Of a DNA stretch of 64,000 nt, positions 3,460-18,790 are shown in pieces. The notes beneath the pieces are model-generated. The model was not told where the DNA came from, made no database searches, and saw only the letters and a list, made by a program, of their open reading frames with translations. The stretch is from positions 4,781 to 68,780 of the forward strand of contig DAOUEQ010000090.1 of assembly GCA_034430395.1 (NCBI GenBank), read 5' to 3'. This stretch comes from Anaerolineales bacterium (lineage in GTDB: Bacteria; Chloroflexota; Anaerolineae; Anaerolineales; E44-bin32). Position 1 is the first letter of the stretch. Each line of letters opens with the position of its first letter. The position numbers and the translations under genes are program-made.

Positions 3460-3475
3460 TGGCATAGTTCTTGCA
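3460..3475 (+). promoter_or_regulatory. sigma54 -24/-12 promoter upstream of rpoN
   Basis: TGGCAT-AGTTC-TTGCA matches consensus TGGCAC-N5-TTGC with exact GG-N10-GC spacing; intergenic, 52 nt before the rpoN ATG. Confidence 0.8.
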
Positions 3476-3527
3476 ACATAATTGCCAGCAATGTCCAGTC
3501 GATGTATACTCACCCGAGAGGCGCACT

Positions 3528-4943
3528 ATGTTCCGTCAGATCCAAGACCAATCTCTTAGACCACTCACGACAGCTCACCTTGCTCAAACGATGAGCCTTC
3601 TTGTTTTATCCAATCAGGAGCTGCACGATCGAGTGATCACAGAACTTGCATCGAATCCTGCGTTGGAGCTTCTTGACGAGCGCATCTGCCCGGGATGCCA
3701 TAAGCCCCTAAGCAATGCCGGACCCTGCCCCGTATGCAGCCGGCAGGCTGAAGGCGAAGAACCAATTGTATTTCTCTCCCCTCGGGATTCCTACCGACCA
3801 TCCAGAAAAAGAACACTTGATGATCAACCGCTGGAGCAAGAACCCGCAGCCCCAGAGGATCTCTCAATTTTCGTCATGCGGCAACTTGCCGCGGAACTTA
3901 AAGAGGAAGATCGGCACATTGCAGTTTACGTCCTTGACAGCCTTGATGAAGATGGCTTCCTGACCAGCCCCCCGCCCTACATCGCACAAGCCACTCGTTC
4001 CAATCTACCTCAGGTTATGAGGGTCATCGACTTGATACGTAAAGCGGACCCCGTCGGTTTGGCAACTAATGGTCCTCGAGAAACGCTTCTCGTTCAACTC
4101 GATCAGTTAGGTGATGGCGGAGAACCGCGCTGCGAATTGGCACGCCGATTACTGAGGGAATCCTTTGCGGAACTCGGTCGTAAAGAATTCGACAAGATCG
4201 CTCACAACTTCGAAGTCAGCCCTGCTGCAGTAAGAGAAGCCGCCACATTCATTCACGACAACCTAAACCCTTACCCCGCGCGAGCGTACTGGGGATCCGG
4301 ACGACAGCCGCAATCTGGCGACTCGAATGTTTACCACACCCCTGACGTCATGATCTCACGCAACCCCTCTGATGAATCTGGGCCACTGATGGTTGAAATA
4401 TTCTCGTCGATTTCGGGCTGGCTTCGGGTGAACCCTCTTTTCCGGCAAGCCATGAGGGAAGCGGATGAAGAGCAGAGCGATGAGTGGTCTGAGCATATGG
4501 AAAAGGCGAATCTCTTTGTGAAATGCATTCAGCAGCGCAATAACACAATGCAACGCCTGATGGGCTTGCTAGTATCACAGCAGAGTAGTTTTATTTTAGA
4601 AGGCGCTCGCCACCTCATACCCATGACGCGAGCCCAAATTGCAGAAGAGATCGGCGTCCACGAATCCACGATCTCAAGAGCAGTAGCGAATAAATCAGTC
4701 GCAATGCCCAATGGCAGAATAATTCCTCTTGCTAAATTCTTTGACCGCAGTCTCTCGGTGCGTGATCGTATCATAGAGATCGTCGAAAATGAAACCAAAC
4801 CACTTACAGACGATGAGATCGCCTCGCTTTTACACGAGGAAGGGATTAAGATAGCACGTAGGACTGTCGCGAAATACCGTGCGGTTGAGAATATTCTACC
4901 AGCTCGGTTGCGGGGTGCAAGAAAACTATCGCAGGCAGCCTAA
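3528..4943 (+). CDS. rpoN: RNA polymerase sigma-54 factor
   Basis: Region I LAQTMSLLVLSNQEL..ELASNPALE, HTH HESTISRAVANK, RpoN box ARRTVAKYR. ATG 3528 has a GAGAGG RBS; the track start 3471 lies inside the promoter. Confidence 0.95.
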   Translation: MFRQIQDQSLRPLTTAHLAQTMSLLVLSNQELHDRVITELASNPALELLDERICPGCHKPLSNAGPCPVCSRQAEGEEPIVFLSPRDSYRPSRKRTLDDQPLEQEPAAPEDLSIFVMRQLAAELKEEDRHIAVYVLDSLDEDGFLTSPPPYIAQATRSNLPQVMRVIDLIRKADPVGLATNGPRETLLVQLDQLGDGGEPRCELARRLLRESFAELGRKEFDKIAHNFEVSPAAVREAATFIHDNLNPYPARAYWGSGRQPQSGDSNVYHTPDVMISRNPSDESGPLMVEIFSSISGWLRVNPLFRQAMREADEEQSDEWSEHMEKANLFVKCIQQRNNTMQRLMGLLVSQQSSFILEGARHLIPMTRAQIAEEIGVHESTISRAVANKSVAMPNGRIIPLAKFFDRSLSVRDRIIEIVENETKPLTDDEIASLLHEEGIKIARRTVAKYRAVENILPARLRGARKLSQAA

Positions 4944-4953
4944 GGTGTAATCT

Positions 4954-6930
4954 TTGGCAAAGGATACTTCACCCACCAATCCGATCTCACGTTTATTTAA
5001 GGCTGACCCCTACCGCGAGCTTTTCCTCTCCCTCGCTGATACTCTAGACAACTCCGTCCTGGTATTATCCGGGGCGGAATCGCGTCTACTCACGTGCAAC
5101 CATGAATTCCTGCTTCTCTCCGGTTACGCCCGAAAGGATCTCGACGACCTAAACCCATCCGCCCTTTTTCCCGGCGAAGAGGGTCACGTTATGCTCAAGA
5201 AGATCCTTGACACATGGGAGAACCCAGACTGCACACTACAAGATGTTCCACTGCAGACACGCACAGGGGAAGTCGTCCTCATTGATCTTGAAGCACACCC
5301 GATCGCTCCTCCCCGAACAGCTGTCCTTCTTCTGATAAAACCCGCGAGTGCTCGCTCACAAATAGAGCAGCGTAAACTTGCTGAAGAGACTCTCTTACGC
5401 AGCTTGGAGAACATTACAAACTTGATGCTGATGGGAGGCACCTCCGCGGTGCCAACAGCACTCGAGCTCTGTCTTGAACCACTCTTCGCGTCATACACCG
5501 CAATATATAGGCTTTCGGCAAACTCGCCTGATTACTTTATCGAAGGTACGCTGCCCCCCGAATTCCCAGAAACGATCCCTGCCGACGCAATCGGCAATTT
5601 ACAGGTATTTTCCTCTTGGAGCCTGGGCCAACGCCCTGAGGGCGAATTACAGCGTGCCGCGAGAACCGCAGAACTCACCCACTTGAAGACTGCACTGATT
5701 GGTGATGATTCCGCTTGGATCGGCATTTTCATCGTCGGCTGGAAAGAGGAGATCGCGCTAAGTCCCGACATCGATCCGCTGATCCGCATCATCGCCAACC
5801 TCCTCCACACTGCCATCTACCTGAGCCAGCTTCGAGCCACCCTCACCGAAGGTGATACCTCCATGAACGAGCTTGAGGCGGAGATCACAAGCCAATTCGA
5901 GGCCATTTCCGATGTTCTGATAACTGTGGACTCTTCGCTCACTATAACAAGAGCGAATTCGGCGATAAACCGCCTGCTCGGTTATCACCCACCCGAAGTA
6001 ATAGGTCTTGCGATCCAGGATGTCCTTGTAGGTCCCGAGGATGTGACAACCACGATCCTTGACGCGCTGGGACACAAGCGCACGGCAGAACGCTCAAGAC
6101 TCATACTCCACCACCGTGATGGCACGCGCCTGCCAGTCCATTTACGGGTTGCTCCTCTGGCTGGAGCTGCAGACGGTCAATTTCTCATCGCCCTAGGTGA
6201 TCAATCCGAACAGCAAGCAATTGAAGATCAAACAGAAATCCTGGCCCAGAGAGCCTTGCTCGGCGAAGTCACCGCGATTTTCGCTCACGAAGTGAGGAAT
6301 CCCATCAACAACATATCCACCGGGGTCCAGCTTGTAGCCTCGCGCCTCGGTGAAAATCACCCACAATTCGAGGCGCTGGGCCGCATCCGGGCGGAGTGTG
6401 TTCGCCTCGATCAACTCATGAGCGACGTGCTCTTCTTTGCCCGCCCACTTCAACTGAAGATGGACCCTCTAGATCTCGCTGAGCTCCTTCAGAGAGTGAT
6501 TACTAGATGGGCGCCTCGCTTTAATCAAACCGGCACTCACTGCCATACTTCATACGATCCTGATACACCTCTCGCATCGGTGGATCCGAGGACACTTGAG
6601 CGAGTCATCGTAAACCTAGTCAGTAATGCTCTTGAAGCCATGACTGAAGGCGGCACACTCTCAATTAGTCTTGCACCAATAGGTCCTGCCCAAGATTGCA
6701 TGATCGAGTTGAAGGTCGCGGATACCGGCCCAGGCATCCCCCCTGATAAGATCCACCGGATATTTGATCCCTTTTTCACTACGAAAAAGGACGGGACAGG
6801 TCTCGGGTTAGCGATTAGCCGACGCATAATAACAGCACATAAAGGGACAATTCAGGTCGAGAGCTTTCCTGATGCAGGTACTGTGTTTACAATTCACCTC
6901 CCATCTGCGGACCTTAGTTCCAAGGAGTGA
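4954..6930 (+). CDS. Cytoplasmic PAS-domain sensor histidine kinase (NtrB-like)
   Basis: Two PAS-like segments; H-box FAHEVRNPINNI, N-box NLVSNALEAM, DTGPGI, FDPFFTTKKDGTGLGL; no obvious TM helix. Confidence 0.9.
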   Translation: MAKDTSPTNPISRLFKADPYRELFLSLADTLDNSVLVLSGAESRLLTCNHEFLLLSGYARKDLDDLNPSALFPGEEGHVMLKKILDTWENPDCTLQDVPLQTRTGEVVLIDLEAHPIAPPRTAVLLLIKPASARSQIEQRKLAEETLLRSLENITNLMLMGGTSAVPTALELCLEPLFASYTAIYRLSANSPDYFIEGTLPPEFPETIPADAIGNLQVFSSWSLGQRPEGELQRAARTAELTHLKTALIGDDSAWIGIFIVGWKEEIALSPDIDPLIRIIANLLHTAIYLSQLRATLTEGDTSMNELEAEITSQFEAISDVLITVDSSLTITRANSAINRLLGYHPPEVIGLAIQDVLVGPEDVTTTILDALGHKRTAERSRLILHHRDGTRLPVHLRVAPLAGAADGQFLIALGDQSEQQAIEDQTEILAQRALLGEVTAIFAHEVRNPINNISTGVQLVASRLGENHPQFEALGRIRAECVRLDQLMSDVLFFARPLQLKMDPLDLAELLQRVITRWAPRFNQTGTHCHTSYDPDTPLASVDPRTLERVIVNLVSNALEAMTEGGTLSISLAPIGPAQDCMIELKVADTGPGIPPDKIHRIFDPFFTTKKDGTGLGLAISRRIITAHKGTIQVESFPDAGTVFTIHLPSADLSSKE

Positions 6931-6933
6931 TGA

Positions 6934-8109
6934 ATGACCGCAACGGTATTGATCGTTGACGACGAAGAGACCGCCCGCAACTTCATCAGCGAAGCGTTGA
7001 CGGATGCTGGCTTTGAAGCAATCGAAGCGGGGACTCTGGCGGAAGCAAATAAAGCGATCGACAAGGGTGTAGGGGATATCATCCTGCTCGACGTTATGCT
7101 CCCTGATGGATCCGGTTTATCTTTGCTTGACCGCCTCGCCCTTGAAAATCCCCGACCACCAGTGATCTTGATCACTGCTTTTGGAGAGATTGATACAGCG
7201 GTCGATGCGATGAAGAAAGGTGCTCTAGATTTCCTACAAAAGCCCCTTGATCTAGATCGCTTGCTTCAAGCTATAGAGCGATCATCAGAGGTTGTGGGAC
7301 TGCGTCGGGAGCTTGATCTCCTGCGTCGGACTTCAATTTTGGAAACGGAGATGGTCATTGGTGAGACACAGATCATGAAGCAGATCATGCACGAAGCCGA
7401 ACGCGCGGCCCAAGCATCAGTCTCTGTCATGATCACAGGTGAAACCGGGACCGGCAAGGAAGTCCTCGCTCGGTCGATACACAGCTTCGGGCCACGTGCA
7501 GATACGCCTTTTATCCCGATTAACTGTGCTGCGCTGCCGGATACGATGATCGAATCGGAGCTTTTTGGACATGAAGCAGGAGCCTTCACCGGCGCGCAAA
7601 AAAAGAAGCCGGGATTGATCGAGATTGCCGACGGCGGCATCCTCTTCCTGGACGAAATCTCCTCAACTAAGCAGGAAATGCAAGCCAAGCTGCTGCGAGT
7701 CTTGGATGAGCAAAAATTCAGACGAGTTGGCGGAGTAAATGAAATTGGCGTTGACGTTCAAATCATCGCCGCTTCGAATCGGAACCTCCCGGTCATGATC
7801 GAGGAGGGAACCTTCAGAGAGGACCTCTACTATCGGCTGAAGGTAGTCGATCTTCACCTCCCGCCTCTTCGTGAACGAATTGTTGATCTCCCAGCGCTTA
7901 CAGGCAACTTCATCCGCCAAATCAACCTCCGTGTTGGCGGCATCGTAGAGGGAATCACACCGCGCGCACTTGACGCACTTAAAGCTCACTCATGGCCCGG
8001 TAACATCCGTGAACTCCGTCACGTGGTCGAGAGAGCAATTCTATTTTGCGACGAGGAAAACATCGATCTCGCTCATCTCCCCCCTGACATACAAGATCTC
8101 GCTTCCTGA
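6934..8109 (+). CDS. sigma54-dependent response regulator (receiver + AAA+ bEBP), no C-terminal HTH
   Basis: Receiver VLIVDDE / LLDVMLPD / KP; Walker A GETGTGKE, GAFTGA, Walker B LFLDEI, REDLYYRL, WPGNIREL. Ends 391 aa right after the AAA+ domain. Confidence 0.92.
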   Translation: MTATVLIVDDEETARNFISEALTDAGFEAIEAGTLAEANKAIDKGVGDIILLDVMLPDGSGLSLLDRLALENPRPPVILITAFGEIDTAVDAMKKGALDFLQKPLDLDRLLQAIERSSEVVGLRRELDLLRRTSILETEMVIGETQIMKQIMHEAERAAQASVSVMITGETGTGKEVLARSIHSFGPRADTPFIPINCAALPDTMIESELFGHEAGAFTGAQKKKPGLIEIADGGILFLDEISSTKQEMQAKLLRVLDEQKFRRVGGVNEIGVDVQIIAASNRNLPVMIEEGTFREDLYYRLKVVDLHLPPLRERIVDLPALTGNFIRQINLRVGGIVEGITPRALDALKAHSWPGNIRELRHVVERAILFCDEENIDLAHLPPDIQDLAS

Positions 8110-8115
8110 ACTCTT

Positions 8116-8131
8116 TGGCACGCTACTTGCA
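8116..8131 (+). promoter_or_regulatory. sigma54 -24/-12 promoter
   Basis: TGGCAC-GCTAC-TTGCA, perfect consensus, in the 57-nt gap before the GGAGG RBS and ATG 8167. Confidence 0.88.
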
Positions 8132-8166: not shown

Positions 8167-8499
8167 ATGATTCCCCTTACATTTGGCGATGTTCAAATCC
8201 TCATAGCTGCAACCATCTTCATCTTGGGCTCCTTATTGGTACTCATCGGGGCTTTGGTTTTAGTCAGCCGAGGCTATTCCCGAGAGGTGCGGGCCTTGGC
8301 GGCTCATACCGCTAGGCTTGGCCAGAAAGGTATTGCCCAAGAGGTAACAGGACTTGTTAACAGTGCCACAGAGCTCGTCGCTTCTCTCAATAGTCTGGTT
8401 CGGACCGCAAGCGGGATAGGGATCATACTGATCTCAGTTGGATTAGGCTTGTTGTACGCAGGCTATTGGATCATTCAGCAAATCAGCTGGCCAATCTAA
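8167..8499 (+). CDS. Small two-TM membrane protein, unknown function
   Basis: Strong GGAGG RBS; two hydrophobic segments flanking an Ala/Leu-rich helical linker. Confidence 0.75.
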   Translation: MIPLTFGDVQILIAATIFILGSLLVLIGALVLVSRGYSREVRALAAHTARLGQKGIAQEVTGLVNSATELVASLNSLVRTASGIGIILISVGLGLLYAGYWIIQQISWPI

Positions 8500-8516
8500 C
8501 CGACTGGATGGGTACT

Positions 8517-11500
8517 ATGCTCAATGACGCGGAAATATTGCAGTATTTAAGCCGGGTCCTGAACGAAGACGATCTCTCCAGCGCAATTAGACGGATCCTG
8601 TATGTGCCAGAGGCGTGGAGCGAGGTTCACAAAAGCGAATTCCTCACCCTGGCTCTGGAGAAGATCGATCGCGCTGGTTGGTCCCCCGCCACTCTCGCTT
8701 CTCTAGCCCTCGGACAATCATCGTTATCTAAGGCGTTGGATTCTCTCTCCTCTGAGCAAGAGAGTCGCATCGCCCATTTACTGGAATTGGATGGTGCTGC
8801 GGAGAACAAGAACCTTGTGGATACCGCACTCCTCTCTGTCACACTTCTGAGAATCGAGACCGATGAAGGGCCAGGTGGGCTGACTGAAACGATACTAAGA
8901 AGCACAGATTTCTGGGCTTCGGCACTTTGCTGCGCGTGGCCATATCTCGAATTTGGGCAAGAAATAATCAATGCACTTATCCGAGAAGGAAGTCAAGCTG
9001 CCATAGCGCTTGTCATACAAATATTGCACGCGAACATGGATGTCAACCGTGCTGTTGAGATTCTTTCAAATCTTGACCATGAATCGACTCAGCGGGTATT
9101 GATCAGTTTAAACCTCAGGCACGAGGATGAGTTGTTCCTGGCTCTTTCAGAATCGATCCGTGATGACCTTCACCCTAATCCAGTAGATGGTCACCAAGAT
9201 CCGAGCGACCTTTCAGAACAGGCAATCATTCTTGCCGCATCAGGGAATTCCGCTGATGCGCAAAAACTCGTCTCTCAAGCCTGGGACCGAACCACATTGA
9301 TCTCAGCGGAGGTCGCCGATCGTTTGGCTGATATTGCCAAAATGGATAATGACCCGGTTCTTGAAGTGGAAGCGCGCAAGCAAGCGCTGCAATTAAAACT
9401 CTCGCCGCGACGGCGCGCCGAACTGGCGAAAGCTTACGTTCAAATAGATCGCCATCAAGATGCCCTCGATCTACTCCAAGAACCCGCGACGGCAGAGGAA
9501 TATATCGCCGCAGGACAAGCTCATCTACTTTCAAACGAGTCTGCGATTGCAGCGGATTGCTTTATTCAAGCCTATCAACACTCACTCAATGCACCTGCGC
9601 TAGAATCCACATGGATGGACTTGCTCTCCCGTGGACTTGAGGCTTCGGGTAAGTATCGCCAGGCGGTCCAGGTCCTCGAGATCCTTTCTGCACTAAAACC
9701 AACCGATGCAGAACTACGACATAATCTAGCCACGTTGCTCGAGAAGGCTGGTGATCCTGATACGGCAGCGGAGCAAGCGGCGTTCGCACTCACGCTGATG
9801 CCGAAATCGCTGCAATTACGCGAAATCTTAGCCCGTAACTTGCAGAAATCCGGCCGCCCAGAACAGGCTATCGCACATTGGCAAGCAATCACCCTGCATG
9901 AGAAACAAGCGCTTGCGAAGTTATGCGCCTGTGCGCTAGAAGCCGGGGATTACACTTTAGCGAAGCAAAGCGCGGAGGAACTCCGCTCAGAAAATCCTGA
10001 GTCAGTGGAAGCCCAAGTCCTTTTGGGAAAAGCTCTTTCTGCCTTGGGAGAGCATCAAGAGGCTGAAGCTCACTTAAAGAAAGTCACACAACTAACCCCT
10101 GCGGATGCCGATGCATGGATTGCTCTTTCGGAATGCCAGCTGTCGACAGGCGGTGAAAATGCTGCCGACAAGACATTAAATGCCGCTCTCGAAGCCTTAC
10201 CAGCGAGCGGAATCATTCATGTCGCGAAGGCAAACTCGCTCCGCAGCAAATCGATGCCAAACGAAGCACTCGAGCATATGCAGAAAGCCGTAGATCTTGA
10301 TCCCGAGAGCGCAGCTTGGCTTGTTGATTATGGGGATCTGCTCAGGGAGCTCGGTCGCATAGAAGAAGCAACGCCAATCCTGCAGTCTGCCCTAGATAAG
10401 CAGCCTGAAAACTGGAAGGCTCGCGAAGCATTAGCTCTCACCTTCGAGAGCCAGGGCGAAATGGCTTCGGCTGCAGAGCTTATCGACAACCTCCCCAGGA
10501 ATCTCGACCCAGATTCACTTTGGAACGCAGGTCGAATTCTCGTCCAGACGCCTTCCGAAAAAGAAGATTCCAAGCTTGTAATTGGTGTAAAGACCCTTGA
10601 AAAGGCCCGTGAGGTTGGATGTGACGACATAGCCATCGATTACTGGATCGCCCATGGCCTTCACCGCCAAGATCTTAACGAGGAAGCCATCAATTATTAC
10701 CAGACCTTCCTGAACAATTCTGAGGAGTCTCCCTGTGAGGCATATCTTCAAGGCGTGCTAGGTCTGGCGGATGCTGCCATCGCAATGGACGACGCACCTT
10801 TGGCAATTGAAACGATGGAGAAGCACCGCGGTCAGTACCCGACTTCACTCGAACTGCTCACCCTTCTGGCGAAAGCACATATGTCTAATAATGACTTCAG
10901 CGTAGCGAAGAATCTCGCTCGCCAGGCTTTCGAGCGAAACCCGATCGAGACTGAAGCACTCTCCATATTAAGCATAGCTGCAGAAGCAGATGGCTCGCTG
11001 GATGAAGCCATCGCCTCACGCAAACAACTCGCCAATCTCCAACCAGAGCAGCCAATGCCCTGGCTAGAACTCGCCCGGCTGACATGGCTCACCGGGAACA
11101 AGGACGCAAGCCGCAACCATTTGGCACGCGGCCTCTCCCTGGGCCGAAGGGATAAGCTAATCCTGCAAAAAGCTGCCACCCTATGCGGCGAGTTCAAATT
11201 CCACCCTTTGCAATTACGATTGCTCCAGAGCGCTTCATCCCTCGATGAGCATGACCCTGACATTCATCAGGAATTGGCACTTGCCGCTGAAAATATCGGT
11301 GATTTTGAACGGGCACAGCGGGCGTGGATGCATATCGCAGATCTTCTTCCAAACGACACTCACCCTCTTGACCGTGCCGCGGATGCACTCTGGAAACTGG
11401 ATAAGAGAACCGCCGCAATTGGCTTGTGGGAACAAGCTACGCAGATCGACTCGGAGAACGCACTGCACTTTACCGCGCTCGGACGAGCTTATATGCAGAT

Positions 11501-13655
11501 TGGGGAGATACAGCGCAGTCTCAACTGCTTTGGTCATGCCCTGGCACTTCAACCGGACGATCCAGCTTTCCTCATCGAAGCCGGTTCAGCAATGACATAT
11601 TCAGGCTCGCTTGAGGAAGGTTTGGGTGTACTACAGAAGGCAGTATCCATCGTGCCGAACGATCCCGTCCCGCTGATTGCTCTCGCCGAAACGCTCCACC
11701 TGCTCGGACGGAATACAGATGCCCGTGCGGCTTTGGATCGTGCGGCGATACTTGCGCCCCTCTCCCTGAAAGGTTTCGCCTTACAGGTCATCACATCTTT
11801 AGAGACAGGAGAACTTGAAAAAGCAAAGGATGCATTCGCCTCGGCTTCCAATTCAGAACCTGAGAATTTAAGCGATGTTCTATGGTCTACACGCAGCGCA
11901 GTGGCACTCGCCGACTGGGTCGCCGCTATTAACAGCATCGAAGAATGGATGGGTACCGTTAAGGACAATCCGGAAGCGGAACTTGAATATCTCCGCGGCC
12001 AGCTTCGGCTGCAGGACTTGCTTTGGGTGTACCGCACAGCGTGCGAGGCAGAGTCACATGCCCCTTCACAGGTTGATTTATCAGGAGAGAAAAAGAACTA
12101 TCTCCGACAGATGATCGATCAATTTAGGTCAGCCAGCTCCAATGAATCGATTGGCGAATTACTCCAGACGTGGTTTGAACTCACCACAGGTGCGAAGGCT
12201 CCTGATGAATGGAAGGTATCTCATAACACACCCCAGCACATCCTTCATGAATTCACCCAGGCGTTTGCCATCGCTCAAATTCGGGCGAACCGGCCAGGGA
12301 AAGCCGAGAATGCTCTCCTGCAAGACAATGGTCCAGGCTATAAGGACCCCTATCACGGTCTCCTACTCGGCATCAGTCGGATGATGCTCGGGAGATTTGA
12401 GGAGGCGCAAGAGAACCTTCAACAGGCTCATGGTAATCCTATGATTCGCCCGCTCGCACTTTTCCTAGAGGCTCAGTTATGGCTGAAAGCGGATGACAAT
12501 GAGAAGGCGATAACAGCGCTCAACAGCGCACTTTCGATCTGGCCCGATGAACCCTCCTGGCATGCCAAGCTCGCTTATCTTTACCAGGAAAACAACAAGC
12601 AGGAAGCAGCGTTACCCCACTGGCAGAATGCCGTTGAACTCGAACCCGAGAACGGGGAGTACCTAACTTCGCTTGCTCGTATCTACCGTGAAGCAGGTCA
12701 ATTGACGGACGCTCAAGCCACATACGCAAAAAGCCTGCAAACGTCATCCGTCACACCCAAAGTCTGGAAGGAGGCTGGCGAGGTCGCCCTTGCAATCGGA
12801 GATGCCGACAAAGCCGAAGCCTGGTTTGAGAGAGCTTGCTCCTTAATGCCCTCTGATGTTGGTGTGATGATCGGATCGTCACAAGCCGCTATGGCCCTTG
12901 GCAATGTGAAACTTGCGCTCGAGCATGCCCGCAAAGCTTATCGACTTGCTCCGAACAACGTGGAAGTCCTCACTGGATTAGGTGACGTTTTCGCTCATCA
13001 AGGTAGGCTTGATAAAGCCATCCAGATTTACGACCGTGCGTTACGCGTCTCCGAAGACGACAAAGCTGTCCAATTAGCCCGCAGTAAACTCCTGCTTCGA
13101 TTAGGGCGAACCGAGGAGGCCGTTGCCGACCTCCGGGTTCTCACGGAGGCAGAATCTGATTTCGAGGACGCGTGGGCTGTTCTTTCCGATGCATACTCTT
13201 CGACCGGCGACAATGATGCTGCTCTCGAAGCTGCCAGCCAGGCGGCGAAACTTGCTCCTCGCAATGTGGAGTACCAACTCCTTCTTGGACGGAAGTTCAA
13301 AGAGTCCGGTCAACTTGACCAGGCGCTTAGCGTATTAACGAAGGCTTCTTCTCTTGCACCCGTTGACGCTCGTATTGCCCGGGAGCTTGGCGATGTCCAT
13401 AAGGCTCGCCGGCAGGATACACAGGCTCTAAATGCTTATCTGCATGCGATTACACTCGACCCAAAGGAAGCGGCAGCCTACAAACAAGCAGGGCTGATCC
13501 TGAAGGTCTTGAAGTCATACCGACAGGCAGCGGATATGTTTGAAAAAGTTGTTTCGATAAATCCCTTGGACCCAGACGCGCTCCATCAGCTTGCTGCTGT
13601 ACGTGCGCTGCAATTAGTCCATGGCGGTATGGAAGAGCAGGCGGTGACCCTATGA
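8517..13655 (+). CDS. Very large TPR-repeat protein (~1700 aa)
   Basis: Dozens of helical repeats with TPR signatures (e.g. AWIALSECQL, WLVDYGDLLRELG, VLTGLGDVFAHQG, AYKQAGLILK). Start 8508 or 8517 uncertain; stop overlaps the next ATG (ATGA). Confidence 0.85.
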   Translation: MLNDAEILQYLSRVLNEDDLSSAIRRILYVPEAWSEVHKSEFLTLALEKIDRAGWSPATLASLALGQSSLSKALDSLSSEQESRIAHLLELDGAAENKNLVDTALLSVTLLRIETDEGPGGLTETILRSTDFWASALCCAWPYLEFGQEIINALIREGSQAAIALVIQILHANMDVNRAVEILSNLDHESTQRVLISLNLRHEDELFLALSESIRDDLHPNPVDGHQDPSDLSEQAIILAASGNSADAQKLVSQAWDRTTLISAEVADRLADIAKMDNDPVLEVEARKQALQLKLSPRRRAELAKAYVQIDRHQDALDLLQEPATAEEYIAAGQAHLLSNESAIAADCFIQAYQHSLNAPALESTWMDLLSRGLEASGKYRQAVQVLEILSALKPTDAELRHNLATLLEKAGDPDTAAEQAAFALTLMPKSLQLREILARNLQKSGRPEQAIAHWQAITLHEKQALAKLCACALEAGDYTLAKQSAEELRSENPESVEAQVLLGKALSALGEHQEAEAHLKKVTQLTPADADAWIALSECQLSTGGENAADKTLNAALEALPASGIIHVAKANSLRSKSMPNEALEHMQKAVDLDPESAAWLVDYGDLLRELGRIEEATPILQSALDKQPENWKAREALALTFESQGEMASAAELIDNLPRNLDPDSLWNAGRILVQTPSEKEDSKLVIGVKTLEKAREVGCDDIAIDYWIAHGLHRQDLNEEAINYYQTFLNNSEESPCEAYLQGVLGLADAAIAMDDAPLAIETMEKHRGQYPTSLELLTLLAKAHMSNNDFSVAKNLARQAFERNPIETEALSILSIAAEADGSLDEAIASRKQLANLQPEQPMPWLELARLTWLTGNKDASRNHLARGLSLGRRDKLILQKAATLCGEFKFHPLQLRLLQSASSLDEHDPDIHQELALAAENIGDFERAQRAWMHIADLLPNDTHPLDRAADALWKLDKRTAAIGLWEQATQIDSENALHFTALGRAYMQIGEIQRSLNCFGHALALQPDDPAFLIEAGSAMTYSGSLEEGLGVLQKAVSIVPNDPVPLIALAETLHLLGRNTDARAALDRAAILAPLSLKGFALQVITSLETGELEKAKDAFASASNSEPENLSDVLWSTRSAVALADWVAAINSIEEWMGTVKDNPEAELEYLRGQLRLQDLLWVYRTACEAESHAPSQVDLSGEKKNYLRQMIDQFRSASSNESIGELLQTWFELTTGAKAPDEWKVSHNTPQHILHEFTQAFAIAQIRANRPGKAENALLQDNGPGYKDPYHGLLLGISRMMLGRFEEAQENLQQAHGNPMIRPLALFLEAQLWLKADDNEKAITALNSALSIWPDEPSWHAKLAYLYQENNKQEAALPHWQNAVELEPENGEYLTSLARIYREAGQLTDAQATYAKSLQTSSVTPKVWKEAGEVALAIGDADKAEAWFERACSLMPSDVGVMIGSSQAAMALGNVKLALEHARKAYRLAPNNVEVLTGLGDVFAHQGRLDKAIQIYDRALRVSEDDKAVQLARSKLLLRLGRTEEAVADLRVLTEAESDFEDAWAVLSDAYSSTGDNDAALEAASQAAKLAPRNVEYQLLLGRKFKESGQLDQALSVLTKASSLAPVDARIARELGDVHKARRQDTQALNAYLHAITLDPKEAAAYKQAGLILKVLKSYRQAADMFEKVVSINPLDPDALHQLAAVRALQLVHGGMEEQAVTL

Positions 13656-16328: not shown

Positions 16329-16344
16329 TGGCACGCTTCTTGCA
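16329..16344 (+). promoter_or_regulatory. sigma54 -24/-12 promoter
   Basis: TGGCAC-GCTTC-TTGCA, perfect consensus, intergenic, 30 nt before ATG 16375. Confidence 0.88.
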
Positions 16345-16374: not shown

Positions 16375-17670
16375 ATGTCTCAAGGATTTGATCGACTCGG
16401 ATTTCATTATTATCACGACCAGGACCATTACACCCAAGCGGATCTTGACCGCTGGCTGCCAATTTTCCAATCTATCCAAACGAAATGGCTCACACTGAGT
16501 GGATCTTGTTCACTAGCCATCCCCGAGTTCTTCCTGCGCAAACTGATCGAGGCGGATATCAAGCCGATCATTCACCTCGAGGCATCAATCGACCAACTCA
16601 ATGTTCGCTCGCTCAGACCACTTTTCGCTAATTACACGGATTGCGGCATCAAGCACATCGTTCTCCATGACCGCCCGAATATGCGTACGCAGTGGGATCC
16701 CTCGAGCTGGTCTCGTGGTGATCTGGTCGAGCGATTCATCGACCACCTGATCCCCTTACTTGAGTTTCAAACCGAATATGGTCTAAAGCCAATTTTCCCT
16801 CCTCTAGAACCCGGTGGCGATTATTGGGATACCGCATTTCTTCGAACAGCGCTTGGATCCCTCCAGCGCAGAGGGAAAGGTGAATTGCTAAAGGACCTCA
16901 CGTTAGGTCTCTACCAATGGAGCTATGGGAAACCGCTTGATTGGGGAGCTGGAGGCCCAGAAGTCTGGACCTGCGCACAACCATACAACACCCCCACTGA
17001 CAGCCAGGACCATCGGGGTTTTCGAATAACCGAATGGTATTCCGCAATCTGCCGCGAGGTTGTCGGAATTGAACTGCCAATGTTAATACTCGCTGGCGGA
17101 ATTTCCCCTCAGACGCAGGTTGGAAGAACGGGAATAAAACCAGATCTTGATGCAATCACTGAAATTCTTGAGCACGCCAGGTGTGATGACCACCCCGGTC
17201 TGGTACTCAACCTCGCTCTAGACCCACATACGGTTTCCGAAGGGCTGCGAGATAGCTGGGAAGCCATCATTGAAAAACCATCGCCCTCAAGGCGAATAAA
17301 GGCTAAGGTAAAGAAACTGTTTGCTGGTGAAGAAACGAGCACAACAAACGCTACTCATAAGAAAATCATCTCACATTACGTGCTTCTCCCGATGTCAAAT
17401 CACCGCAACTTAACCCAGGATTGGGTAAATGTAGGACCCTTTGCGTTAGCCGTGAAACCAGTTGTTGGTTTCTCTGTGGGAGAAGCCCAATTCGCCGAAC
17501 GAGTGACGATCATCGGCCACGAGACGGATATTCCTGCTGCTATCGAAGACCAACTGCGCAGTGCCGGTTGTGATGTCAACCGCCTCCGAATGGCAGATGC
17601 GTCAGAGCTTCTTGTTATGGCGGCCGAACTAGCTTCAAAGAACCTCACTTCTGGAGTTGTCAATGCCTGA
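16375..17670 (+). CDS. Degenerate glycoside-hydrolase-like (clan GH-A TIM barrel) protein with small C-terminal alpha/beta domain
   Basis: IVLHDRPN aligns by eye to the V-x-x-NEPN motif and LPMLILAGG to LP-x-x-xTE-x-G; family assignment by pattern only. Confidence 0.5.
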   Translation: MSQGFDRLGFHYYHDQDHYTQADLDRWLPIFQSIQTKWLTLSGSCSLAIPEFFLRKLIEADIKPIIHLEASIDQLNVRSLRPLFANYTDCGIKHIVLHDRPNMRTQWDPSSWSRGDLVERFIDHLIPLLEFQTEYGLKPIFPPLEPGGDYWDTAFLRTALGSLQRRGKGELLKDLTLGLYQWSYGKPLDWGAGGPEVWTCAQPYNTPTDSQDHRGFRITEWYSAICREVVGIELPMLILAGGISPQTQVGRTGIKPDLDAITEILEHARCDDHPGLVLNLALDPHTVSEGLRDSWEAIIEKPSPSRRIKAKVKKLFAGEETSTTNATHKKIISHYVLLPMSNHRNLTQDWVNVGPFALAVKPVVGFSVGEAQFAERVTIIGHETDIPAAIEDQLRSAGCDVNRLRMADASELLVMAAELASKNLTSGVVNA

Positions 17671-18790
17671 TGCAAATTCCCTCGAGTACTTACAGCATCT
17701 CTCCCAACCCGAACATCCGCGGCAATTAGGAGAAGCCAAAGTCAAAGTCCTAGGCCTGGGTGGAGGAGGGTCGAACGCCGTCAATCGTATGATCGAGTTA
17801 GGGGTGATGGGCGTCGAGTTCATCGCCGCCAACACTGACCAGCAAGCACTAGCTTCCAGTCTTGCACCTACCCGCATTCAACTTGGACCACGGATCACTC
17901 GCGGTCTGGGAGCAGGTGGTGACCCAAAGATCGGCGCATCAGCAGCGATGGAAAGCAGCCGTGAGATCGCCGCGGTTCTTGCAGGAGCCGACATGGTCTT
18001 CATCACCGCAGGCATGGGTGGTGGTACAGGAACTGGAGCAGCTCCTGTCGCGGCCGAGATCGCGCGGGAGATCGGCGCAGTTGTTATCGCAGTTGTTACC
18101 ATGCCTTTTAGTTTCGAGATGAGCAAGCGCTCCCAGAATGCCCTGGAAGGTGTCCGTCTAATACAACCGCATACGAATACGCTGATTACCGTGCCAAATG
18201 ATCGCTTGTTGCAAGTCGTTCCCCGGGATCTAAGCCTGGAGGTCGCCTTTCGTATTGCGGATGATGTTCTGCGCCAGGGAGTCCAGGGGATCGCCGAATT
18301 GATCACCCGTCCCGGCTTGATCAACGTAGATTTCGCACATGTGCGCGAGATTATGACCCGCGGAGGTGGCGCCTATATGGCCATCGGGTTAGGGGAAGGT
18401 GAAGAGAAAGCGCCCGCGGCGATTAAGCAAGCGCTGCACCACCCACTGTTAGAGATCGACGGCCTCGATAGCGCCTCGGGTGTTCTCGTGCACTTCACAG
18501 GAGGCGAGGACCTCACGCTCTACGAAGTTGGAGAAGCCGTAAACGAGCTGCGCAATGTGACCACACCTGATATCGACATCATTCTCGGTGCCACGACGGA
18601 TCCAGCGATGACGGGCCGGGCGCAAGTCATTTTAATCTTCACCGGTGTGGGAGGCTGCCCAGTTGCTGCCACACAGGGGATTGATGAAATTGCAATCGCA
18701 TCTTCATCTCAGGTCAAAAGTAATCAGATAGAGGATCTCGACCTACCAACTTTTCTAAGAAGGCGCGCCGCTGTCGGCTCAAGGAGCTAA
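17663..18790 (+). CDS. ftsZ: FtsZ-family tubulin-like GTPase (paralogue outside a dcw cluster)
   Basis: GLGGGGSNAVNRM, ANTD, AGMGGGTGTG, T7 loop GLINVDFAHV, C-terminal peptide DLDLPTFLRR. ATG 17663 with GGAG RBS. Confidence 0.93.
   Translation: MPDANSLEYLQHLSQPEHPRQLGEAKVKVLGLGGGGSNAVNRMIELGVMGVEFIAANTDQQALASSLAPTRIQLGPRITRGLGAGGDPKIGASAAMESSREIAAVLAGADMVFITAGMGGGTGTGAAPVAAEIAREIGAVVIAVVTMPFSFEMSKRSQNALEGVRLIQPHTNTLITVPNDRLLQVVPRDLSLEVAFRIADDVLRQGVQGIAELITRPGLINVDFAHVREIMTRGGGAYMAIGLGEGEEKAPAAIKQALHHPLLEIDGLDSASGVLVHFTGGEDLTLYEVGEAVNELRNVTTPDIDIILGATTDPAMTGRAQVILIFTGVGGCPVAATQGIDEIAIASSSQVKSNQIEDLDLPTFLRRRAAVGSRS

Follow-up and report, generated by a model that had tools for sequence, protein, structure and literature searches.

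An activator without a DNA-binding domain in a sigma-54 gene block

Within a 64-kb stretch from the genome of an uncultured, filamentous member of the Anaerolineales (contig DAOUEQ010000090.1 of assembly GCA_034430395.1, positions 4,781 to 68,780; 51% G+C; hereafter the window), the open reading frame (ORF) at nucleotides (nt) 6934 to 8109 of the forward strand encodes a homologue of the bacterial enhancer-binding proteins (bEBPs), the AAA+ activators of sigma-54. The protein, 391 amino acids (aa) long, lacks the helix-turn-helix (HTH) domain that binds enhancers. Its gene follows rpoN, which encodes sigma-54, and a histidine kinase gene, with intergenic gaps of 10 nt between rpoN and the kinase and 3 nt between the kinase and the activator. 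The order rpoN, kinase, activator, membrane protein, TPR protein and Peptidase_C25-like protein is kept in every related locus, and the kinase adjoins the activator in all of them.

Pfam searches assigned the protein a receiver domain (Response_reg, PF00072; residues 5-115, 3e-27), a sigma-54 interaction AAA+ domain (Sigma54_activat, PF00158; residues 141-307, 9e-69) and an AAA lid (AAA_lid_14; residues 313-388, 4e-23). The receiver residues D10, D53, T81 and K103 are present and invariant among orthologues. Likewise conserved are Walker A (GETGTGKE, residues 169-176), the DE of Walker B (240-241) and the GAFTGA loop (216-221). Residues 4-382 align without gaps to the receiver and AAA+ domains of Aquifex NtrC1 (PDB 1NY5; E = 3e-98), the best match among solved structures. 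As is characteristic of bEBPs, its sigma-54 interaction AAA+ domain has both Walker motifs and a GAFTGA loop, and the same genome encodes rpoN, two genes upstream, and has -24/-12 promoters. The protein also has what characterizes the HTH-less “type Ic” activators, a receiver with a phospho-acceptor Asp joined to the AAA+ domain, and a conserved absence of the DNA-binding domain.

No match to HTH_8 (PF02954) was found in the activator by Pfam. Just three residues follow the lid, and the NtrC model TIGR01818 aligned over its positions 1-381 of 463 only. Between the TGA stop codon (8107-8109) and the sigma-54 promoter TGGCACGCTACTTGCA at 8116-8131 there are six bases (8110-8115). None of the three frames downstream of the stop encodes an HTH, the next ORF being a membrane protein with two transmembrane (TM) segments. 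A six-frame translation of the whole window, searched with a hidden Markov model (HMM) of HTH regions, gave nothing (best E = 0.6); this model was built from the HTH regions of 30 HTH-bearing relatives and detected a held-out control. Nor was a second bEBP found within the window. An earlier note on this DNA, made from its letters alone, had described a receiver with a complete AAA+ domain and intact GAFTGA, a stop at residue 391, a sigma-54 promoter 6 nt further on and no frameshifted HTH downstream, and had proposed the HTH_8 search. The Pfam domains, the residue check and the searches above agree with it on all of these points.

In the source databases, orthologues go by the names “DNA-binding NtrC family response regulator”, “AtoC” and “sigma-54-dependent Fis family transcriptional regulator”. 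Because the protein has no recognizable DNA-binding or Fis-type domain and misses the equivalog cutoffs, the labels “DNA-binding NtrC family”, “AtoC” and “Fis family” appear unfit for it. Rejected assignments were those to a FlgR orthologue (NF049963, 265.2 bits vs. a cutoff of 750), the NtrC equivalog (TIGR01818, 384 vs. 558.6, in a match without the HTH part), the AtoC equivalog (NF008469, 381 bits vs. 714) and the PEP-CTERM regulator PrsR (TIGR02915, 342 vs. 502.6, in a locus without an exosortase).

Conservation and history of the HTH-less state

The 120 best-matching database clusters (78-100% identity) range from 378 to 422 aa in length, and none has PF02954. A scan with one genome per species, covering Anaerolineales, Anaerolineaceae, Brevefilum and Anaerolinea, yielded ~37 species-level loci at 56-98% identity to the activator. 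In all complete loci the orthologues measure 389-397 aa and end 5-12 residues past a conserved HLPxEI. The sole length exception, a 412-aa read-through in locus L038, stems from a nanopore-derived metagenome-assembled genome (MAG) whose neighbouring genes are fragmented, and a sequencing error is its probable cause. The nearest database relatives of the window are MAGs labelled Anaerolineales or Anaerolineaceae, phylum Chloroflexota. One locus, L009 (JAIWHF010000034.1), is filed in a “Methanosarcinales archaeon” MAG; the locus is bacterial, with 96% protein identity and full synteny, and is almost certainly a mis-binned Anaerolineales contig.

More distant relatives were retrieved by a filter-free search of 1.8 billion 50%-identity representatives. 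Few of these clusters are short (P0121, P0122, P0128, P0137, P0140 and P0159, 390-407 aa; P0193, 411 aa), and those with source labels are Anaerolineales or Chloroflexota, whereas most relatives at ≤47% identity are 445-500 aa long. The short proteins of P0128, P0137, P0140, P0159 and P0193 (43-51% identity) are HTH-less and lie within the same gene block, in the same order. In the P0159 protein (locus L084) the GAFTGA loop reads GRAYTDA; F-to-Y and G-to-D changes in GAFTGA are each known in functional activators (PMC3162934).

In a neighbour-joining tree, nine HTH-less module proteins fall into one group. Strict monophyly of the HTH-less proteins is unsupported (0/100 bootstraps): the HTH-bearing P0156 stands beside P0159, and P0139 goes with P0134. 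P0156 (~46% identity, 453 aa) has a weak HTH_8 in the context rpoN-kinase-activator, followed further on by proteins of 106 aa and 2076 aa; one sigma-54 promoter precedes rpoN there and another follows the activator. In P0134/P0398 (464 aa) the C-terminal tail is no longer recognized as HTH_8 by Pfam; the gene adjoins rpoN and the kinase, with ftsZ and a TPR/C25 gene nearby. In P0139 (1003 aa; L086 4137-7148; Anaerolineae lineage), which lies in an rpoN-kinase-activator context, TPR and cNMP-binding domains after the AAA lid replace the HTH. Since the contexts of P0156, P0139 and P0134 are those of the same module, we read the tree pattern as stepwise loss and not as an orthology problem. As the P0156 branch of the same block keeps a weak HTH_8, the ancestral module activator must have carried an HTH, which decayed, was replaced or was lost depending on the branch, and the loss is old and fixed across Anaerolineales. 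The earlier note had named HTH-bearing orthologues as the finding that would count against it. None was found in the ~37 loci or in the distant P0128, P0137, P0140, P0159 and P0193, so that its view stood there, but it did not extend to the distant P0156 with its weak HTH_8.

A different architecture is seen in P0125 (L087 9001-10827; 51% identical), in which a receiver and a sigma-54-type AAA+ domain are fused to a CHAT caspase-like domain. Genes for an SNF2 helicase, MmeI-type restriction-modification, a KAP NTPase/kinase and a VWA protein surround it, rpoN is missing from its neighbourhood, and it may represent a defence-island use of this ATPase.

Sigma-54 promoters and leader elements

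The exact pattern TGGCAY-N5-TTGCW occurs three times in the window (3460, 8116 and 16329), compared to 0.13 expected occurrences, and none of 100 shuffles reached three. All three promoters are on the forward strand, directly upstream of genes, and no further -24/-12 promoter was found in the 64 kb.

The promoter upstream of rpoN is kept in every locus that reaches this position, including the distant L081, L083, L085 and L088, and sigma-54 therefore appears to transcribe its own operon. Autoregulation of rpoN has been described in other classes (PMC12316311). Between this promoter and the rpoN start codon there is a sigma-70-like promoter. Only three such sites exist in 16.5 kb, and a TATAAT/TATACT box is found at the equivalent place in most related loci. 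This promoter is a candidate source of the basal expression that a positive loop would need. In the Brevefilum group, the -12 box TTGCA(A) of the sigma-54 promoter doubles as the -35 box of a TATAAT promoter, and these arrangements hint at competition between the two promoters or at dual control of rpoN. Locus L085 has three tandem sigma-54-like promoters before rpoN (4160-4280).

The promoter that follows the activator is found 1-42 nt past the stop in all complete related loci, with diverging flanks. In L081 a xanthine-dehydrogenase cluster is inserted after the activator, and the promoter stays with the membrane-protein gene. L085 has a terminator-like inverted repeat and no promoter after the activator (9236-9350), and a sigma-54 promoter before the C25-like gene (15105). 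Within the window's subclade, 14 loci extend as far as the third promoter (L001-L006, L009, L012-L014, L016, L017, L038), and it is kept in all of them; nine of those subclade loci, together with the window, make up its alignment.

A conserved stem-loop capable of masking the Shine-Dalgarno (SD) sequence of the 110-aa gene follows the second promoter. Its pairing is supported by covariation among 26 sequences, with three pairs showing compensatory changes and 13 C-to-U changes giving U.G pairs. The 5′ arm spans approximately -7 to +3 of the sigma-54 promoter. Because it overlaps the predicted transcription start, the hairpin would form only in read-through RNA from the upstream operon, in which it would block translation, and RNA initiated by sigma-54 would be free of it. 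In the Brevefilum group a U-tract follows the stem-loop, which there may also terminate transcription.

Little non-coding DNA lies upstream of the three promoters (24, 6 and 19 nt). Within the 300-nt upstream regions of seven genomes, no common 10-mer (one mismatch allowed) was found, no more than in shuffled controls, which is a weak test. Both observations fit enhancer independence and do not prove it, since sites could lie within coding DNA.

Gene content of the block

The features of the block are listed in Table 1. The start of rpoN is probably the ATG at 3528, the mechanical ORF beginning with a TTG at 3471. Against TIGR02395 the protein scores 257.5 bits (cutoff 277.35), and its gene contains an RpoN box at nt 4854-4880. 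At the boundary of Regions I and II there is a four-cysteine (Cys4) motif, CPGC-x9-CPVC, at nt 3687-3737 (residues 54-70 counted from ATG 3528). The pattern CxxC-x8-13-CxxC is present in the sigma-54 of each of the 18 module versions examined, among them the distant L081, L083-L086, L088 and L090. The motif is absent from the Escherichia coli and Klebsiella sigma-54 structures, which have acidic residues at that place, and we found no literature on a Cys4 motif in Region II of sigma-54. A link with enhancer-independent sigma-54 systems has been described for the Zn-ribbon protein FlgZ (PMC3372290), and a connection between FlgZ and the Cys4 motif is conceivable.

Table 1. Genes, promoters and leader elements of the sigma-54 block, in window coordinates.
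Feature	Position (nt)	Strand	Remarks
Sigma-54 promoter TGGCATAGTTCTTGCA	3460..3475	+	Precedes rpoN; the divergent trmFO-like gene has its start codon 24 nt away
Sigma-70-like promoter TTGCCA-17-TATACT	3482..3510	+	10/12 matches; between sigma-54 promoter and rpoN start codon
rpoN (sigma-54), 471 aa	3528..4943	+	Sigma54_AID, CBD, DBD (Pfam); full-length alignment to solved sigma-54
Soluble PAS histidine kinase, presumed cognate	4954..6930	+	HisKA 437-497; HATPase_c 544-651; H-box HEVRNP at residue 445
HTH-less bEBP homologue	6934..8109	+	Receiver nt 6946-7278; AAA+ 7354-7854; GAFTGA 7579-7596; lid 7870-8097; stop
Sigma-54 promoter TGGCACGCTACTTGCA	8116..8131	+	Perfect -24/-12; 6 nt past activator stop; predicted start ~8142
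Stem-loop	8135..8162	+	Anti-SD arm ttcgccttcag pairs with SD ctggaggcgaa of the 110-aa gene
110-aa protein, two TM segments	8167..8499	+	Weak DUF948 similarity; first gene of target operon; syntenic in all loci
Giant cytoplasmic TPR protein, 1729 aa by ORF	8466..13655	+	Likely start ATG 8508; syntenic in all loci
Cytoplasmic TPR + Peptidase_C25-like protein, 885 aa	13652..16309	+	Pfam match; invariant H601-G and E-A-C649-Y-G; no TM segment
Sigma-54 promoter TGGCACGCTTCTTGCA	16329..16344	+	19 nt past C25-like stop; before 431-aa gene and ftsZ
431-aa protein	16375..17670	+	End overlaps ftsZ start
ftsZ	17657..18790	+	TIGR00065, 378 bits vs. cutoff 295.2; Pfam Tubulin and FtsZ_C

No TM segment was predicted in the PAS kinase. 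The HG and EACYG motifs of the C25-like protein are typical of clan CD proteases (caspase/gingipain-type dyad), and the protein has a conserved C-terminal Cys/His cluster. Its AlphaFold model has a predicted local distance difference test score of 65, falling below 50 across the catalytic region, and the Foldseek matches are all TPR proteins; the C25-like assignment rests on the Pfam match and the invariant motifs and not on the predicted structure. For the 431-aa protein there was no Pfam, NCBIfam or PDB sequence match. Its gene and ftsZ lie downstream of the block only in the window's subclade, and control of ftsZ by sigma-54 would be unusual. In the rearranged locus L090, rpoN, kinase, activator, ftsZ and the TPR/C25 gene remain neighbours.

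The block unites rpoN with one kinase, one activator and three sigma-54 promoters in conserved synteny, and the window has no further bEBP and no further -24/-12 promoter; by these observations, sigma-54 looks devoted to one module here. The earlier note had placed HTH-less activators where sigma-54 is devoted to one programme, and this part of its interpretation gains support. Its wider proposal, that every sigma-54 promoter of the genome may fire together, would require the activator to be the genome's only bEBP.

Proposed mechanism and alternative explanations

We consider it probable that the activator is a phosphorylation-controlled and enhancer-independent one, of the type of Helicobacter FlgR and Chlamydia CtcC and of independent origin, which serves an autoregulated, self-contained sigma-54 cassette whose linked promoters rise together. 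Starting from the observed domain content, conservation, synteny and conserved promoters, the following course can be envisaged. The sigma-70-type promoter would provide basal transcription of the rpoN-kinase-activator operon. Upon a cytoplasmic cue, the soluble PAS kinase would phosphorylate Asp53 of the receiver. The phosphorylated receiver would release the AAA+ domain and allow the ring to assemble, an NtrC1-type derepression proposed from the NtrC1 alignment. The GAFTGA loops would then engage, from solution, sigma-54 waiting at -24/-12 promoters, and ATP hydrolysis would open the DNA. Having no DNA-binding domain, the activator would have no choice of promoter, and every accessible sigma-54 promoter would be switched on at once. 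Within the locus these would be the promoters of the rpoN operon itself (positive feedback), of the membrane-protein/TPR/C25-like operon and, in the window's subclade, of the 431-aa gene and ftsZ.

A bolder form of this proposal, which we offer tentatively and regard as rather doubtful in its full extent, sees the sigma-54 of Anaerolineae as a self-contained switch resembling those of extracytoplasmic function (ECF) sigma factors. One operon would hold the sigma factor with its lineage-specific Cys4 insert, its only kinase and its only activator; the HTH would have decayed because the pair is dedicated, and the autoamplifying switch would drive a cell-fate or division programme of these filamentous bacteria, comprising a cytoplasmic TPR scaffold, a caspase-like protease and ftsZ, with the promoter-embedded anti-SD hairpin silencing read-through transcripts.

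Several points weigh against an enhancer-independent activator. P0156, with the same block, keeps a weak HTH_8, so the module can work with a DNA-binding activator, and DNA tethering of the module activator may once have mattered. Another protein could bind enhancers located within the coding sequence upstream of the promoters. The count of bEBPs covers the 64-kb window and the ~21-kb loci of the relatives, that of exact promoter matches covers the window, and further bEBPs and sigma-54 promoters may lie elsewhere in the genome. These points lead to the alternative that the activator is tethered to DNA, or made specific, through a partner, either an HTH-bearing bEBP from elsewhere in the genome with which it forms hetero-oligomers, or some other DNA-binding or TPR protein. 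The genome might then hold several activators, and its sigma-54 promoters would not all fire together. The FleT-FleQ hetero-oligomer of Rhodobacter sphaeroides is a precedent (PMC3162934), protein-interaction domains (TPR and cNMP-binding) have taken the position of the HTH in P0139, and TPR proteins abound in the regulon. Nevertheless, we find this alternative unlikely. Neither a second bEBP nor an HTH_8 segment was detected in the window or in the ~21-kb loci of ~37 relatives, the rpoN-kinase-activator unit was inherited as one block across deep divergence, and no common motif was found upstream of the three promoters.

Much less credible still is a mainly non-transcriptional role of the AAA+ protein, for example in remodelling or regulating the adjacent TPR and caspase-like proteins, with the promoter-like motifs being incidental. 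The CHAT fusion of P0125, with a 51% identical receiver and AAA+ part, a defence-island-like context and no rpoN nearby, would be in line with such a role. On the other hand, the sigma-54 contact motif GAFTGA is intact and conserved in the activator, its gene is always co-operonic with rpoN, and -24/-12 motifs occupy syntenic intergenic positions far beyond chance. A local truncation, pseudogene or assembly artefact, by which the HTH would have been lost in this contig alone, can practically be dismissed. The short length is all that speaks for it, along with the 412-aa read-through of L038, a reminder that MAGs of this kind can contain sequencing errors. Proteins of more than 120 database clusters and of ~37 species-level genomes, obtained in independent studies, end at the same point (HLPxEI plus 5-12 residues), and the sigma-54 promoter after the activator stop is conserved; the database clusters and related loci refute a truncation restricted to this activator.

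In Chloroflexota the same HTH-less solution appears to have arisen independently, leaving a visible trail of HTH decay inside one conserved block. With the sigma factor, sensor, activator and at least two or three target promoters physically linked, the regulon and the promoter specificity without enhancers become approachable with few constructs. The locus also points to sigma-54 control of a caspase-like protease and of ftsZ in abundant, mostly uncultured filamentous bacteria, and the case corrects the database names of the activator orthologues.

Comparison with known systems

HTH-less sigma-54 activators have been studied in a few pathogens, namely Helicobacter, Campylobacter, Chlamydia and, functionally, Borrelia. 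As in the window, the kinase in Helicobacter pylori, FlgS, is soluble. H. pylori FlgR is described as an enhancer-independent sigma-54 activator (Brahmachary et al. 2004, PMC438555, as cited in PMC3162934 and PMC3372290). The activator of the window resembles FlgR in combining a receiver and an AAA+ domain in ~380-390 aa, in ending right after the AAA lid without an HTH, in having a histidine kinase partner and in serving a narrow sigma-54 programme. It differs in belonging to Chloroflexota, with no flagellar genes in the locus and with TPR proteins, caspase-like proteins and ftsZ as targets, and in that rpoN, kinase and activator form one autoregulated operon adjoining the targets. Because the Campylobacter FlgR model NF049963, a stand-in for H. 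pylori FlgR, gives 265 bits vs. 750, below the generic NtrC and AtoC models, the loss of the HTH would be independent of the origin of FlgR.

CtcC of Chlamydia, the partner of the kinase CtcB, was compared by description only. It is likewise an HTH-less receiver-AAA+ activator, described for a sigma-54 regulon devoted to one developmental programme (PMC7482065, PMC3162934). The two differ in gene organization and targets, and the sigma-54 of Anaerolineales has a Cys4 insert in Region II.

Aquifex aeolicus NtrC1 (PDB 1NY5, 4L4U) is the closest match among solved structures and is compared here together with the NtrC/AtoC/ZraR family. The gapless match over receiver, linker and AAA+ domain suggests an NtrC1/DctD-type control, in which the unphosphorylated receiver would keep the ATPase inactive. 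In contrast to the window protein, which stops ~9 residues past the aligned region, full-length NtrC1 and the family models have an enhancer-binding C-terminal HTH_8. In PrsK-PrsR-PrsT (TIGR02916, TIGR02915, TIGR02917), the regulators of PEP-CTERM/exosortase systems, a kinase is likewise encoded together with a sigma-54-dependent response regulator and a large protein of TPR type. All three models match their counterparts in the window, yet all score below their cutoffs (92.7 vs. 300, 342 vs. 502.6 and 268 vs. 312), PrsR has an HTH, and neither an exosortase nor PEP-CTERM proteins were seen in the locus.

Enhancer-independent HTH-less activators have published precedent (PMC3162934, PMC3372290, PMC7482065). 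The “type Ic” class comprises the ~4% of activators in which the DNA-binding domain, the signal-recognition domain or both are missing; in CtcC and FlgR it is the DNA-binding domain (PMC3162934). HTH-less activators have been noted in Epsilonproteobacteria, Chlamydiae and Bacteroidetes (PMC3372290). The likeness to FlgR and CtcC drawn in the earlier note holds, as the architecture is that of these published activators (PMC3162934, PMC3372290). In the literature we found neither a report of an HTH-less activator in Chloroflexota nor a paper on sigma-54 in Anaerolineae, and the sole Chloroflexi activator in the list of Francke et al. comes from Herpetosiphon and measures 458 aa. What the window holds is a known design in a phylum new for it, Chloroflexota. 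Less ordinary is that the sigma factor, its sensor, the activator and their targets have been inherited as a single block across deep divergence.

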